64,000 nucleotides of DNA, taken from NCBI GenBank assembly GCA_000146045.2, contig BK006943.2, positions 160,001-224,000 on the forward strand, read 5' to 3'. A program made the translations under genes and the position numbers. The stretch comes from TPA_inf: Saccharomyces (Eukaryota). The notes below the pieces were generated by a model. That model saw nothing but the letters and a program-made list of their open reading frames with translations. It searched no databases and had not been told where the DNA came from. Below are positions 37,313 through 44,392 of this stretch, piece after piece. Position 1 is the stretch's first letter; the number at the start of each line of letters is the position of its first letter.

Positions 37313-37385
37313 TGGACGAGTCCGGAATCGAACCGGAGACCTCTCCCATGCTAAGGGAGCGCGCTACCGACTACGCCACACGCCC
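37313..37385 (-). tRNA. tA(AGC): tRNA-Ala (anticodon AGC)
   Basis: The reverse complement reads GGGCGTGTGGCGTAGTCGGTAGCGCGCTCCCTTAGCATGGGAGAGGTCTCCGGTTCGATTCCGGACTCGTCCA, identical to yeast tRNA-Ala. A-box TGGCGTAGTCGG, B-box GGTTCGATTCC, G3:U70 pair. Confidence 0.95.
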
Positions 37386-37400
37386 TAATATTATTGATAT

Positions 37401-37494
37401 TGTTGTTTATCAAAGTGAGATACGTCAGTATGACAATACGTCATCCTAAAAGTTCATAAAACACATATGAAACAACTTCATAACAGAACGAACA
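37401..37494 (+). repeat. Sigma (Ty3 LTR) 5' fragment of about 94 bp, 16 bp upstream of the tRNA-Ala 5' end
   Basis: tgttgtttatcaaagtgagatacgtcagtatgacaatacgtcatcc...acacatatgaaacaac matches the sigma 5' end (TGTTGTATCTCAAAATGAGATATGTCAGTATGACAATACGTCACC...). The 16-bp spacing from a Pol III gene is the classic Ty3 integration position. Confidence 0.8.
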
Positions 37495-37544
37495 TGTTGG
37501 AATAAAAATCCACTATCGTCTATCAACTAATAGTTATATTATCA
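37495..37544 (+). repeat. Delta (Ty1/Ty2 LTR) 5' fragment, truncated by the Ty4 insertion
   Basis: tgttggaataaaaatccactatcgtctatcaactaatagttatattatca matches delta positions about 1-60 (TGTTGGAATAGAAATCAACTATCATCTACTAACTAGTA...TATTATCA). Confidence 0.75.
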
Positions 37545-37915
37545 TGTTGGAACGAGAGTAATTAATAGTGACATGAGTTGCTATGGTAACAATCTAATGC
37601 TTACATCGTATATTAATGTACAACTCGTATACGTTTAAGTGTGATTGCGCCTATTGCAGAAGGAATGTTAAACGAGAAGCTCAGACAATACTGAAGCTGT
37701 GTTAAAGACCTATTAGTTGAACATGTTATGGTAGGTACATATATGAGGAATATGAGTCGTCACATCAATGTATAGTAACTACCGGAATCACTATTATATT
37801 GGTCATAATTAATATGACCAATCGGCGTGTGTTTTATATACCTCTCTTATTTAGTATAAGAAGATCAGTACTCACTTCTTCATTAATACTAATTTTTAAC
37901 CTCTAATTATCAACA
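37545..37915 (+). repeat. Ty4 5' LTR (tau, 371 bp)
   Basis: TG...CA termini. Essentially identical to the 3' LTR at 43398-43768 over the parts compared. Confidence 0.9.
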
Positions 37916-39157
37916 TGGCGACCCCAGTGAGGGGTGAAACAAGAAATGTTATTGACGACAACATTTCTGCGCGGATTCAATCGAAAGTCAAAACAAATGA
38001 TACTGTCAGACAGACGCCATCATCATTAAGAAAAGTTTCTATTAAAGATGAACAGGTGAGACAATATCAAAGAAACTTAAATAGGTTTAAAACCATACTA
38101 AATGGTTTAAAGGCAGAAGAGGAAAAACTTTCTGAGGCTGATGATATTCAGATGCTAGCTGAAAAATTATTAAAACTCGGAGAAACCATTGACAAGGTTG
38201 AGAATAGGATTGTGGATCTAGTTGAAAAGATACAATTATTGGAAACAAACGAGAACAATAATATATTACATGAACATATAGATGCTACAGGGACTTACTA
38301 TTTATTCGATACGTTAACTTCAACCAACAAAAGATTCTACCCTAAGGATTGTGTTTTTGATTATAGGACTAATAATGTCGAGAACATTCCTATTCTCTTA
38401 AACAATTTTAAAAAATTCATCAAGAAATATCAATTTGATGATGTCTTTGAAAATGATATCATAGAAATCGATCCTCGTGAAAATGAAATCTTGTGCAAGA
38501 TAATCAAAGAAGGACTCGGTGAAAGTTTAGATATCATGAACACAAATACAACTGACATTTTTAGGATAATCGATGGTTTAAAAAAACAAATATAGAAGTT
38601 TGCATGGTAGAGATGTCAGAATTAGAGCCTGGGAAAAGGTTTTGGTTGATACAACATGTAGAAATTCCGCATTGTTAATGAATAAACTTCAAAAGTTGGT
38701 ACTAATGGAAAAATGGATTTTTTCTAAATGCTGCCAAGATTGTCCTAATCTAAAGGATTACCTACAAGAAGCTATCATGGGAACCTTACATGAATCCTTA
38801 AGAAATTCTGTGAAACAACGTTTGTACAACATTCCACATGACGTAGGAATTGATCACGAAGAATTTCTAATCAATACTGTTATTGAAACAGTAATTGATT
38901 TGAGCCCAATTGCAGACGATCAAATAGAAAATAGCTGCATGTATTGCAAATCTGTTTTCCATTGCTCAATTAACTGCAAAAAGAAACCAAATAGGGAACT
39001 TAGGCCTGACTCGACCAATTTCTCAAAAACCTATTATCTACAAGGTGCACAGAGACAACAACCACTTAAGTCCAGTGCAAAACGAACAAAAGTCTTGGAA
39101 CAAGACACAAAAAAGGTCGAACAAAGTGTACAACAGCAAAAAACTGGTAATTATTGA
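37915..39157 (+). CDS. Ty4 Gag (TYA), apparently interrupted by a frameshift at 38580-38600 in this copy
   Basis: Frame-1 ORF 37915-38595 (226 aa) is followed by frame-2 ORF 38600-39157, which carries the nucleocapsid zinc knuckle CMYCKSVFHCSINC. The switch happens exactly at an A7 run (38580-38586): frame 2 has TAA at 38579-81 and frame 1 has TAG at 38593-95. Deleting one A yields a continuous 414-codon Gag. Confidence 0.7.
38999..39005 (+). other. Ty +1 programmed ribosomal frameshift heptamer CUU-AGG-C
   Basis: The exact heptamer used by Ty1, Ty2 and Ty4. CTT is a frame-2 (Gag) codon and GGC starts the frame-0 (Pol) ORF. Confidence 0.85.
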
Positions 39158-42100
39158 TACCGGTTCCGGAGTAAACATTACCAATGACAAAACCTTACTG
39201 CATAATTACGAAGACAGTAATCGCAGTACACGATTTTTTGGTATTGGGAAAAACAGTTCAGTGTCTGTTAAAGGGTATGGCTATATAAAAATCAAGAATG
39301 GTCACAACAATACTGACAATAAGTGTCTATTAACTTACTATGTACCGGAAGAAGAATCCACTATAATCAGCTGTTATGACTTAGCCAAGAAAACCAAAAT
39401 GGTTTTAAGTCGAAAATATACCAGATTGGGAAACAAAATCATAAAAATTAAAACCAAGATAGTTAATGGTGTCATTCACGTAAAAATGAACGAGTTAATT
39501 GAACGTCCTTCCGATGATTCAAAAATAAATGCAATAAAACCTACTTCTTCTCCTGGATTTAAACTAAATAAAAGGTCTATTACCTTGGAAGATGCTCATA
39601 AAAGAATGGGCCATACAGGAATTCAACAAATTGAAAATTCCATAAAACATAATCATTATGAAGAATCCCTTGACTTAATCAAAGAACCAAATGAATTTTG
39701 GTGTCAAACCTGTAAAATCTCTAAAGCCACGAAAAGAAATCATTATACCGGGTCTATGAATAATCATAGTACTGATCATGAACCAGGCTCATCATGGTGC
39801 ATGGATATATTTGGCCCTGTATCAAGTTCAAACGCGGACACTAAAAGGTACATGCTTATTATGGTGGATAACAACACGAGATATTGCATGACCTCCACAC
39901 ACTTCAATAAGAATGCTGAAACTATTTTAGCTCAAGTTAGAAAGAATATTCAGTACGTGGAAACACAATTTGACAGGAAAGTCAGAGAAATTAATTCAGA
40001 CAGAGGTACTGAATTCACAAATGATCAGATAGAAGAATATTTTATTTCAAAAGGAATACATCACATACTTACTTCTACACAAGATCATGCTGCTAACGGA
40101 AGAGCAGAAAGATACATAAGAACAATAATAACTGATGCAACAACACTCCTAAGACAAAGTAACTTAAGAGTAAAATTTTGGGAATACGCAGTAACTTCTG
40201 CTACCAATATAAGAAATTACCTGGAACACAAAAGTACAGGTAAACTACCATTGAAGGCAATCTCACGTCAACCTGTGACAGTGAGATTAATGTCATTCTT
40301 ACCATTTGGCGAAAAAGGAATAATTTGGAATCATAATCACAAAAAATTGAAACCATCTGGACTTCCTTCTATAATTCTATGCAAAGATCCAAATAGTTAT
40401 GGATACAAATTCTTTATACCATCCAAAAATAAAATTGTCACATCTGATAATTATACAATTCCCAACTATACAATGGACGGTAGAGTAAGAAATACTCAGA
40501 ATATTAACAAGAGTCATCAATTCAGTTCAGATAATGATGATGAAGAAGATCAAATCGAAACGGTCACAAACTTATGTGAAGCTTTGGAAAACTACGAAGA
40601 TGATAATAAACCAATTACTCGCCTGGAAGATTTGTTCACAGAGGAAGAGTTATCTCAAATAGACTCAAACGCAAAATACCCATCTCCTAGTAATAACCTA
40701 GAAGGGGACTTGGATTACGTATTTTCTGATGTTGAGGAATCTGGAGATTATGACGTTGAATCTGAACTTTCAACGACAAATAATTCAATCTCAACTGATA
40801 AAAACAAAATTTTGTCAAACAAGGATTTTAATTCAGAACTTGCATCGACTGAAATATCCATCAGTGGAATCGATAAGAAAGGATTAATAAATACAAGTCA
40901 TATTGATGAAGATAAGTATGATGAAAAAGTCCACAGAATTCCATCGATTATACAAGAGAAACTGGTAGGAAGTAAAAATACTATTAAAATCAATGACGAA
41001 AACAAAATCTCCGACAGAATTCGTAGTAAAAACATTGGGAGTATTTTAAACACTGGACTCAGTAGATGTGTAGATATCACCGATGAATCTATTACTAACA
41101 AAGATGAGTCAATGCACAACGCAAAACCCGAACTAATTCAGGAGCAGTTAAAAAAAACAAATCATGAAACTTCGTTTCCTAAAGAAGGGAGCATTGGAAC
41201 AAATGTAAAATTCCGAAATACAAACAATGAGATTTCTTTAAAAACAGGCGATACGAGTTTACCAATAAAAACTTTAGAAAGCATTAACAATCACCATAGT
41301 AATGATTATTCCACAAACAAAGTTGAAAAGTTTGAGAAGGAAAATCATCATCCGCCCCCGATTGAGGACATTGTGGATATGAGTGATCAAACTGATATGG
41401 AATCAAACTGTCAGGATGGTAATAACTTAAAAGAATTAAAAGTCACCGATAAAAATGTACCAACTGACAATGGAACAAATGTGTCACCAAGGTTGGAACA
41501 AAATATTGAAGCATCTGGATCACCAGTACAAACAGTTAATAAAAGTGCCTTCTTAAACAAAGAATTCAGTTCTTTGAACATGAAAAGAAAACGGAAAAGA
41601 CACGATAAAAACAATAGTCTAACAAGCTATGAATTAGAAAGAGATAAGAAGCGTTCAAAAAAGAATCGAGTGAAATTAATTCCAGATAATATGGAAACAG
41701 TTTCAGCACCAAAAATTCGAGCCATATATTATAATGAAGCTATTTCAAAAAATCCTGACCTCAAAGAAAAACATGAATACAAACAGGCATATCATAAAGA
41801 ATTACAGAATTTAAAAGATATGAAGGTATTTGATGTCGATGTGAAGTACAGTAGATCAGAAATCCCTGATAATTTAATAGTACCCACCAACACGATATTC
41901 ACAAAGAAAAGAAATGGGATTTATAAGGCTAGGATAGTCTGCAGAGGTGATACTCAGTCACCAGACACTTACAGTGTAATAACTACAGAATCTTTAAATC
42001 ACAATCATATTAAGATATTCTTAATGATTGCAAACAACAGAAATATGTTTATGAAGACCCTGGATATCAATCATGCATTCCTATATGCTAAATTGGAAGA

Positions 42101-43325
42101 AGAAATATACATCCCACATCCGCATGATAGGAGATGTGTAGTCAAGCTAAATAAGGCGTTATATGGTCTAAAACAGAGTCCTAAAGAATGGAATGATCAT
42201 CTAAGACAATACTTGAATGGAATTGGACTGAAAGATAACTCTTATACTCCGGGATTATACCAAACCGAGGATAAAAATCTAATGATTGCAGTCTATGTTG
42301 ATGACTGCGTAATTGCGGCAAGCAATGAACAGAGATTGGATGAATTCATAAACAAATTGAAAAGTAATTTTGAACTGAAAATTACAGGAACATTAATAGA
42401 CGATGTACTCGATACAGATATATTAGGAATGGATCTAGTATACAACAAAAGACTTGGTACTATCGATTTAACATTAAAATCATTCATAAATAGAATGGAT
42501 AAAAAATACAACGAGGAATTGAAAAAGATTAGAAAAAGTTCAATTCCGCATATGTCAACTTATAAAATAGATCCTAAGAAAGACGTACTGCAAATGTCAG
42601 AAGAAGAGTTTAGACAAGGTGTTCTAAAGCTACAACAATTACTAGGTGAACTAAACTATGTCAGACACAAATGCAGATACGACATTGAATTTGCTGTTAA
42701 GAAAGTGGCTAGACTAGTAAATTACCCACATGAAAGAGTCTTTTATATGATTTACAAAATAATCCAGTACTTGGTTCGGTATAAAGATATTGGAATACAC
42801 TATGACCGAGACTGTAATAAAGACAAAAAGGTTATTGCTATAACTGATGCATCAGTTGGATCAGAATATGATGCTCAATCAAGGATTGGAGTTATATTAT
42901 GGTACGGTATGAATATTTTTAATGTTTATTCTAACAAGAGCACAAACAGATGTGTATCATCAACAGAAGCAGAGCTTCATGCCATTTATGAAGGCTATGC
43001 AGACTCAGAAACGTTGAAGGTAACATTAAAGGAGCTAGGAGAAGGAGACAATAATGACATTGTCATGATCACTGACTCAAAGCCAGCCATTCAAGGATTA
43101 AATCGCAGCTATCAACAACCAAAAGAGAAATTCACTTGGATAAAAACTGAAATAATAAAAGAAAAAATTAAAGAGAAGAGTATAAAACTGTTAAAAATTA
43201 CCGGCAAAGGTAATATTGCTGATTTACTAACAAAACCAGTATCAGCATCTGATTTTAAAAGATTTATACAAGTATTAAAAAATAAAATAACATCACAGGA
43301 TATTTTGGCCTCAACAGACTATTGA
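39003..43325 (+). CDS. Ty4 Pol (TYB): protease, integrase, reverse transcriptase, RNase H. Expressed as a Gag-Pol fusion by +1 frameshifting.
   Basis: +1 frame open from the CTT-AGG-C heptamer (38999-39005). Aspartic protease IDTGSG. Integrase HHCC (HKRMGH...CQTCKISK) and D,D35E. RT motif YVDDCVIAA. RNase H TDAS. The track ORF 39045-43325 (1426 aa) starts at an internal GTG. Confidence 0.9.
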   Translation, partial: GLTRPISQKPIIYKVHRDNNHLSPVQNEQKSWNKTQKRSNKVYNSKKLVIIDTGSGVNITNDKTLLHNYEDSNRSTRFFGIGKNSSVSVKGYGYIKIKNGHNNTDNKCLLTYYVPEEESTIISCYDLAKKTKMVLSRKYTRLGNKIIKIKTKIVNGVIHVKMNELIERPSDDSKINAIKPTSSPGFKLNKRSITLEDAHKRMGHTGIQQIENSIKHNHYEESLDLIKEPNEFWCQTCKISKATKRNHYTGSMNNHSTDHEPGSSWCMDIFGPVSSSNADTKRYMLIMVDNNTRYCMTSTHFNKNAETILAQVRKNIQYVETQFDRKVREINSDRGTEFTNDQIEEYFISKGIHHILTSTQDHAANGRAERYIRTIITDATTLLRQSNLRVKFWEYAVTSATNIRNYLEHKSTGKLPLKAISRQPVTVRLMSFLPFGEKGIIWNHNHKKLKPSGLPSIILCKDPNSYGYKFFIPSKNKIVTSDNYTIPNYTMDGRVRNTQNINKSHQFSSDNDDEEDQIETVTNLCEALENYEDDNKPITRLEDLFTEEELSQIDSNAKYPSPSNNLEGDLDYVFSDVEESGDYDVESELSTTNNSISTDKNKILSNKDFNSELASTEISISGIDKKGLINTSHIDEDKYDEKVHRIPSIIQEKLVGSKNTIKINDENKISDRIRSKNIGSILNTGLSRCVDITDESITNKDESMHNAKPELIQEQLKKTNHETSFPKEGSIGTNVKFRNTNNEISLKTGDTSLPIKTLESINNHHSNDYSTNKVEKFEKENHHPPPIEDIVDMSDQTDMESNCQDGNNLKELKVTDKNVPTDNGTNVSPRLEQNIEASGSPVQTVNKSAFLNKEFSSLNMKRKRKRHDKNNSLTSYELERDKKRSKKNRVKLIPDNMETVSAPKIRAIYYNEAISKNPDLKEKHEYKQAYHKELQNLKDMKVFDVDVKYSRSEIPDNLIVPTNTIFTKKRNGIYKARIVCRGDTQSPDTYSVITTESLNHNHIKIFLMIANNRNMFMKTLDINHAFLYAKLEEEIYIPHPHDRRCVVKLNKALYGLKQSPKEWNDHLRQYLNGIGLKDNSYTPGLYQTEDKNLMIAVYVDDCVIAASNEQRLDEFINKLKSNFELKITGTLIDDVLDTDILGMDLVYNKRLGTIDLTLKSFINRMDKKYNEELKKIRKSSIPHMSTYKIDPKKDVLQMSEEEFRQGVLKLQQLLGELNYVRHKCRYDIEFAVKKVARLVNYPHERVFYMIYKIIQYLVRYKDIGIHYDRDCNKDKKVIAITDASVGSEYDAQSRIGVILWYGMNIFNVYSNKSTNRCVSSTEAELHAIYEGYADSETLKVTLKELGEGDNNDIVMITDSKPAIQGLNRSYQQPKEKFTWIKTEIIKEKIKEKSIKLLKITGKGNIADLLTKPVSASDFKRFIQVLKNKITSQDILASTDY

Positions 43326-43397
43326 TAATTAATTAATGAAGTTCTAAACACACAATGAATATCTGTTGAAGTACAATAATATATCTTTAAGGGAGCA

Positions 43398-43768
43398 TGT
43401 TGGAACGAGAGTAATTAATAGTGACATGAGTTGCTATGGTAACAATCTAATGCTTACATCGTATATTAATGTACAACTCGTATACGTTTAAGTGTGATTG
43501 CGCCTATTGCAGAAGGAATGTTAAACGAGAAGCTCAGACAATACTGAAGCTGTGTTAAAGACCTATTAGTTGAACATGTTATGGTAGGTACATATATGAG
43601 GAATATGAGTCGTCACATCAATGTATAGTAACTACCGGAATCACTATTATATTGGTCATAATTAATATGACCAATCGGCGTGTGTTTTATATACCTCTCT
43701 TATTTAGTATAAGAAGATCAGTACTCACTTCTTCATTAATACTAATTTTTAACCTCTAATTATCAACA
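43398..43768 (+). repeat. Ty4 3' LTR (tau, 371 bp)
   Basis: Direct repeat of 37545-37915. Preceded by a polypurine tract (aagggagca). Confidence 0.9.
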
Positions 43769-43782
43769 TATCAATATATTAT

Positions 43783-44114
43783 TGAAGATTGGGTGAATTT
43801 TGAGATAATTGTTGGGATTCCATTTTTAATAAGGCAATAATATTAGGTATGTAGATATACTAGAAGTTCTCCTCCAGGATTTAGGAATCCATAAAAGGAA
43901 ATCTGCAATTCTACACAATTCTATAAATATTATTATCATCATTTTATATGTTAATATTCATTGATCCTATTACATTATCAATCCTTGCGTTTCAGCTTCC
44001 ACTAATTTAGATGACTATTTCTCATCATTTGCGTCATCTTCTAACACCGTATATGATAATATACTAGTAACGTAAATACTAGTTAGTAGATGATAGTTGA
44101 TTTTTATTCCAACA
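43783..44114 (-). mobile_element. Full-length solo delta LTR (Ty1/Ty2 type, 332 bp), inverted relative to Ty4
   Basis: The reverse complement begins TGTTGGAATAAAAATCAACTATCATCTACTAACTAGTATTTACGTTACTAGTATATTATCATATACGGTGTTAG and ends ...CAACAATTATCTCAAAATTCACCCAATCTTCA. Flanked by a 5-bp duplication ATTAT (43778-43782 and 44115-44119). Confidence 0.9.
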
Positions 44115-44392
44115 ATTATCATATACGGTGTTAAGATGATGACATAAGTTATGAGAAGCTGTCATCGAAGTTAGAGGAAGCTGAAGTGCAAGGATTGATA
44201 ATGTAATAGGATAATGAAACATATAAAACGGAATGAGGAATAATCGTAATATTAGTATGTAGAAATATAGATTCCATTTTGAGGATTCCTATATCCTCGA
44301 GGAGAACTTCTAGTATATTCTGTATACCTAATATTATACCCTCTATCAACAACAGGATTCCAACAATTATTTCAAAATCCACCCATATCTCA
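44115..44392 (+). repeat. Diverged delta LTR 3' portion, 5'-truncated; probably the remainder of the delta whose 5' end is at 37495-37544
   Basis: Starts attatcatatacggtgttaagatgatgac (delta about position 47 onward) and ends caacaattatttcaaaatccacccatatctca, a delta 3' terminus. About 80-85% identical to the inverted solo delta. Confidence 0.7.

Follow-up and report, generated by a model that had tools for sequence, protein, structure and literature searches.

Can a Ty4 retrotransposon whose gag gene is split between two reading frames at a run of adenines still make Gag and Gag-Pol, or does the split reflect an error in the reference sequence? The question is raised by a copy on chromosome X of Saccharomyces cerevisiae S288C. 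We analyzed it within a 64,000-nucleotide stretch of DNA that starts at chrX 160001 (the window, whose numbering is used throughout). The element and its immediate setting are made up of the following features.

37313 to 37385, minus strand: tRNA-Ala(AGC) gene, its upstream side toward the element, 160 bp from the LTR (from the tRNA gene location).
37540 to 37544, no strand: left copy of the target site duplication (TSD) TATCA, 5 bp, with the right copy at 43769 to 43773 (seen in the sequence).
37545 to 43768, plus strand: full-length Ty4 (YJLWTy4-1), 6224 bp, recognized by its LTR pair and an internal region 99.6–99.97% identical to other Ty4 copies.
37545 to 37915, plus strand: 5' LTR (tau), 371 bp, TGTTGG...CAACA, identical to the 3' LTR at 371/371 positions.
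37916 to 37933, plus strand: primer-binding site TGGCGACCCCAGTGAGGG, directly after the 5' LTR (seen in the sequence).
39003 to 43325, plus strand: TYB/Pol frame, 1440 codons, open, with domains in the order Pol_BBD, rve, SH3_retrovirus, RVT_2.
43398 to 43768, plus strand: 3' LTR (tau), 371 bp, from the LTR comparison.

Several properties place the element in Ty4, of the Ty1/copia type: tau LTRs with TG...CA ends and a 5-bp TSD, +1 expression of Pol via CUU-AGG-C, near-identity to named Ty4 proteins, the copia-type Pol order and a site upstream of a Pol III gene. The published Ty4 LTR length is likewise 371 bp (PMC7175516). Pol is read in frame 3, which has no stop from 38928 to 43325, and matches Pfam models Pol_BBD (residues 50–130), rve (259–360), SH3_retrovirus (431–485) and RVT_2 (959–1170). 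Pfam has no model for Ty4 Gag. The primer-binding site TGGCGACCCCAGTGAGGG is presumably complementary to the 3' end of tRNA-Asn; the 64-kb window contains no tRNA-Asn gene for comparison. A changed primer-binding site is mentioned for the Ty4 lineage (PMC4022208).

ASF1 lies upstream of the element and MDV1 and CCT7 lie downstream, with tRNA-Asp(GTC) 1 kb downstream. Because the two LTRs are identical at all 371 positions and the TSD TATCA is intact, we regard the insertion as bona fide and evolutionarily young. The tRNA-Ala(AGC) gene is the Pol III target of the insertion, given that its upstream side faces the element at a distance of 160 bp. Other LTR remnants surround the copy. By eye, the interval between tRNA-Ala and the element (37400–37544) seems to hold part of a sigma-like LTR (Ty3) and, from a delta-like LTR (Ty1/Ty2), the first ~50 bp. 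These remnants look like nested insertions at a single tRNA target. Two delta-like LTR segments, inverted relative to each other, occupy 43790–44392 between the Ty4 3' LTR and tRNA-Asp; they are 89–90% identical, on opposite strands, to a delta in the flank of contig L012, discussed below.

The gag region of the element consists of two open halves in different frames, with the following features.

37915 to 38595, plus strand: truncated TYA/Gag ORF, 226 aa, now annotated as YJL114W (exact match to NP_012422.2 / DAA08687.2).
38580 to 38586, plus strand: A7 homopolymer, the +1 insertion site, A6 in intact copies (copy comparison; Engel et al. 2014 Table S1).
38582 to 39157, plus strand: remaining 191 Gag codons, frame 2, severed from the start codon (residues 223–413 of P0012, the Ty4 gag of strain EC1118).
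38936 to 38977, plus strand: CCHC zinc knuckle CMYCKSVFHCSINC (CX2CX4HX4C), frame 2 (seen in the sequence).
38999 to 39005, plus strand: CTT-AGG-C +1 frameshift heptamer from Gag (frame 2) to Pol (frame 3) (seen in the sequence).

Frame 1 is free of stops from the ATG at 37915 to the TAG at 38593–38595, which makes 226 codons, and it contains 19 more stops beyond that point, up to 39148. The A of this ATG is the final base of the 5' LTR, and its TG are the first bases of the primer-binding site. Frame 2 has 18 stops through the TAA at 38579–38581 and is then open until the TGA at 39155–39157. At a stop probability of 0.08 per codon, estimated from local base composition, the probability that 226 and 191 codons stay open by chance is ~6e-9 and ~1e-7, respectively. 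The two open halves overlap only at 38582–38592 (AAAAACAAATA), so the frame switch is confined to these positions, which overlap the A7 run within GGTTTAAAAAAACAAATATAG. Removing one A gives a continuous Gag of 413 aa (414 codons with the stop), whose junction reads ...IDGLKNKYRSLHGRDVRIRAWEKV.... In the 226-aa product as it stands, the final three residues (KQI) are out of frame.

An earlier note, made from the sequence, had described this arrangement. It claimed a TYA that starts at 37915 in frame 1 and ends at the TAG after 226 codons, the rest of Gag with the CCHC knuckle and the CUU-AGG-C site in frame 2, a switch just after the frame-2 TAA, and an uninterrupted 414-codon Gag upon removal of one A. 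Recomputing the frames reproduced all of this, and the coordinates given there are correct throughout. The note had also called for alignment with other Ty4 copies, for resequencing evidence on the A-run and for a check on slippage at this site, which the following paragraphs take up.

The repaired Gag has 0/413 differences from P0012, which is indexed in 246 blocks of the sequence collection. Homology search with Gag found no relative above 70% identity; Ty4 Gag belongs to a 90% cluster whose representative is a Pol-only sequence, and close copies were reached via the cluster listing. All 12 intact Ty4 copies compared, a set without the S288C copies YHLWTy4-1 and YPLWTy4-1, have A6 and a continuous 413-aa Gag, and they occupy at least four other chromosomal sites. 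Of these 12, the 10 loci that encode P0012 each read GGTTT-A6-C. The other two, annotated insertions on chromosome XIII (STV1/FET3) and chromosome IX (BAR1/MNT3), have A6 as well; the 12 also include insertions near MRI1 (an IF-2B family gene) and DPH1. Exact look-ups of seven Gag variants and three truncated forms found several of the variants as 413-aa proteins in run assemblies, none of them under an S288C name. In intact copies, joining the frames at CTT-AGG-C yields a 1802-aa Gag-Pol.

More distant relatives at 52–70% identity (S. kudriavzevii, S. eubayanus and an ENA contig) also read continuously across the junction, where they share ...IFRII.DLK.KY.S..GRDVR.KAWEKVLVDTTC. As the intact copies and the relatives are all single-frame, A6 in one frame is the native organization and A7 is a derived +1 insertion; the two-frame A7 layout is not common to the family. 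The difference is easily seen against the intact Ty4 on EC1118 chromosome IX (EC1118_1I12_ty4_gagp, CAY80410.1). The two elements are 99.8–99.9% identical in nucleotide sequence across their length and agree in LTR length, +1 heptamer and Pol domains, and their Gag is identical once one A is discounted. However, the chromosome X copy has A7 and a 226-aa product, whereas the EC1118 copy has A6, a 413-aa Gag and a 1802-aa Gag-Pol.

The defect is genuine yet already known, both from the RefSeq/SGD annotation and from the list of changes in R64. The 226-aa ORF exactly matches RefSeq NP_012422.2 / DAA08687.2, ‘gag protein [Saccharomyces cerevisiae S288C]’ (YJL114W). Compared with YJLWTy4-1 (YJL114W/YJL113W) of S288C R64, the window has the same ORF and the same flanking genes (ASF1, MDV1 and CCT7), and no difference was detected. 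Between R63 and R64 exactly one retrotransposon feature was revised, on chromosome X, and Table S1 lists the change as ‘YJLWTy4-1 Deletion 198588 A; Deletion 198632 G’ (Engel et al. 2014, PMC3962479). With a window start of chrX 160001, the position of the A-run fits coordinate 198588. These deletions imply that the 1996 sequence had A8 and an extra G in a GGG run 44 nt downstream, a net +3 that left the ORF open. In the 2010 resequencing of S288C, the G and a single A dropped out of the sequence, so that the run became A7 and the net shift +1. As reconstructed from Table S1, the single source here, the 1996 sequence encoded a 414-aa Gag and a 1803-aa Gag-Pol with an out-of-frame patch of 16–17 residues. 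Exact look-up of the reconstructed 414-aa and 1803-aa proteins in the sequence collection gave no match. In the literature that we consulted, including Carr 2012, Bleykasten-Grosshans 2013, Maxwell 2020 and the 2023 Ty4/Tsu4 preprint, we found no discussion of the ORF integrity of individual Ty4 copies.

A homopolymer in a three-copy repeat is the weakest spot for Sanger and short-read calls alike, so A7 could be a residual reference error at a chromosome X copy that truly has A6 and an intact Gag. The record gives this reading some footing: the 1996 sequence was wrong at this very run, with a compensating G 44 nt away, and short reads within three near-identical Ty4 copies cannot be uniquely placed. 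The window also has two pol bases of its own. Position 39170 is A where 21/21 other copies have C, a silent change, and position 40219 is A where 21/21 have G, which turns NIRNCLEH into NIRNYLEH (Cys to Tyr) downstream of the integrase core. The consensus bases stand at both positions even in L001, a separate chromosome-level S. cerevisiae assembly of the same locus, reached by exact look-up of the 226-aa ORF. At the A-run, however, L001 agrees with the window: it has A7 between the same ASF1, MDV1 and CCT7 flanks and is 99.99% identical over 20.7 kb. A7 also appears in contigs of three independent and unrelated sequencing runs (L014–L016), and three chromosome-scale contigs encode precisely the 226-aa product. 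Finally, a true A6 would need a two-base deletion from A8, and resequencing reported one, going from A8 to A7 without reaching A6 (Engel et al. 2014 Table S1). We consider an artefact improbable. A real A7 could still be harmless if slippage restored the frame, with Pol II stuttering or tRNA-Lys slipping by +1 on A-AAA-AAA, so that some Gag and Gag-Pol is made from a fraction of the mRNAs or ribosomes. Rescue would require a +1 event between 38582 and 38592, and the geometry permits one: tRNA-Lys can re-pair perfectly from AAA at 38581–38583 to AAA at 38582–38584, a slip located between the frame-2 TAA and the frame-1 TAG. In the zero frame, however, the codon that follows is AAA, neither slow or rare nor a stop, and a stimulator is not evident. 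To our knowledge, A7 is also shorter than the runs with reported efficient slippage or ribosome sliding, which weighs against rescue. Programmed recoding would be expected to leave the two-frame layout conserved among related elements; instead, the layout is not native, and intact relatives are all single-frame with A6 or its equivalent. Low-level slippage on A7 may occur, but a percent-level yield would leave Gag far below what particle assembly needs. The closest precedent for compensation at that level is the G-run of herpesvirus thymidine kinase, with its ‘savior’ indels (PMC5009743). There, too, the frame is lost through a one-base indel in a seven-base run, and in principle a little slippage could recover it here as it does there. 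In the herpesvirus, however, compensation was demonstrated and is selectively beneficial (PMC5009743), whereas in Ty4 both its occurrence and its importance would be hypothetical. Meaningful rescue by slippage is unlikely, and we give it somewhat less weight than the artefact.

The reading that we favor is that YJLWTy4-1 on S288C chromosome X has gained an extra A (A6 to A7) in gag codons 223–224 and is, very probably, coding-dead in cis. An autonomous Ty4 copy reads all of Gag in a single frame, from start codon to stop codon, and reaches Gag-Pol through one programmed +1 shift; the chromosome X copy has no such Gag frame, and its heptamer is in frame 2, with the ATG frame 1 already terminated. 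Ribosomes starting at the Gag ATG would make 223 correct residues, add KQI and stop at the TAG at 38593. Missing from this product would be the last 190 residues of Gag and, with them, the CCHC nucleocapsid knuckle. CTT-AGG-C would never be met in the right frame, so that no Gag-Pol, and with it no protease, integrase or reverse transcriptase, would be expected. The Pol frame is open, albeit with the private Cys-to-Tyr change at 40219, which may or may not matter, and the LTRs, the primer-binding site and the polypurine tract side are intact. At best, proteins from an intact Ty4 might mobilize the copy in trans. Polymerase slippage on the homopolymer is the most likely origin of the extra A; it could have occurred when this young copy was reverse transcribed or in later chromosomal replication. 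The proposal of the earlier note, that TYA is broken by one inserted base in the A-run and the copy is therefore non-autonomous, is thus probably right, with A6 found elsewhere and A7 kept by resequencing.

The biological weight of this is small. Transposition of Ty4 is stated not to have been observed (PMC3511429). Full-length Ty4 copies are few in the reference strain, and it would fit with that statement if one of them is coding-dead, as it appears to be. In practice, an A6 copy is preferable to YJL114W/YJL113W as a model of Ty4 Gag or Gag-Pol. If our reconstruction is correct, older entries based on the 1996 sequence would carry the out-of-frame stretch of 16–17 residues.

The same junction is broken in other elements. 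A third allele reads GGTT-A7-C (T3A6 to T2A7); its length equals that of the intact allele, but Leu222 changes from TTA to TAA, which leaves a 221-aa Gag. This T2A7 allele was found in seven contigs from different samples (L012, L013 and L017–L021). In L012 the site is at 785–805, homologous to window 38575–38587, and the element continues into a delta LTR and tRNA-Thr(AGT). From this flank we conclude that the T2A7 element in L012 is an insertion other than the chromosome X copy. In S. uvarum OX365943.1 (L022, 7001–7735), a Tsu4-like gag is frameshifted by AAG-A7-TAC, with the rest open in the next frame; an intact S. eubayanus relative (L023, 3001–4200) has AAG-A6-TAC at the homologous run. 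This A6-to-A7 change in S. uvarum may have arisen in parallel, or it may be a homopolymer error of long reads. One intermediate would predict both S. cerevisiae null alleles, namely an extra T opposite A6 in minus-strand synthesis: left unrealigned it would give the +1 insertion, and realigned it would give T-to-A at the neighboring base. Dislocation of this kind is a classical model for polymerases and reverse transcriptases. Together these alleles suggest that the T3A6 junction in gag is a slippage hotspot. With the same site mutated in other strains and in S. uvarum, the junction would be a modest but clear instance of a homopolymer hotspot within a retroelement.

Repeated truncation at one place could also mean that the fragment is kept for a function. 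An N-terminal Gag of 221–226 aa, or a C-terminal fragment initiated downstream, could interfere with Ty4 particle assembly, on the model of Ty1 p22/p18 or a domesticated Gag. Two different mutations cut Gag at this point, T3A7 on chromosome X and T2A7 (TAA) at the tRNA-Thr locus, and the homologous S. uvarum run shows an A6-to-A7 change. Ty1 offers a precedent in its Gag-derived restriction factors (PMC8458377, PMC10951436). However, a slippage hotspot already predicts such recurrence, and an error of long reads at a homopolymer could explain the S. uvarum case. The sampling itself favors this site: loci were fetched by the exact 185-aa downstream ORF, so that only breaks within ~20 codons of the site are detectable. 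In addition, the element is young and polymorphic among strains, an ale strain having lost YJL113W/YJL114W among other genes. The resemblance to Ty1 p22/p18 and to domesticated Ty1' Gag is that a retrotransposon copy encodes a partial Gag. However, p22 corresponds to the C-terminal half of Gag and is produced from an internal transcript of intact elements, while the predicted Ty4 fragment would be the N-terminal half, produced by a null mutation, and its inhibition of assembly is hypothetical. Retention of a truncated Gag for interference is the least probable of the readings considered here, and the Ty1 p22/p18 or domesticated-Gag model for it is just as doubtful. A combined version is hardly more credible and ranks below slippage rescue: the Ty4/Tsu4 T3A6 junction would be a recurrent hotspot for +1 or T-to-A nonsense mutations, with the half-Gag retained as a poison of particle assembly. 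If true, it would amount to a built-in, mutation-driven brake on copy number, analogous to Ty1 p22. The preferred explanation remains a null allele produced by slippage.

Contigs L014–L016 also led us to consider whether several S288C copies have A7. We rejected this reading, as the contigs were fetched by the broken arrangement and their variant patterns look mosaic. In L014 and L015, variants of several Ty4 copies seem to be combined, and the chromosome XVI copy of S288C-like strains may be among the sources. Near window position ~41200, CAAATG has become CAAAATG in both contigs; this added A divides Pol into 701 and 710 aa, and with A6 restored their Gag-Pol would end at 1104 aa. The longest homopolymer of the element is an in-frame A8 within Pol at 41150–41157, which is interrupted by substitutions in L014 and L015.
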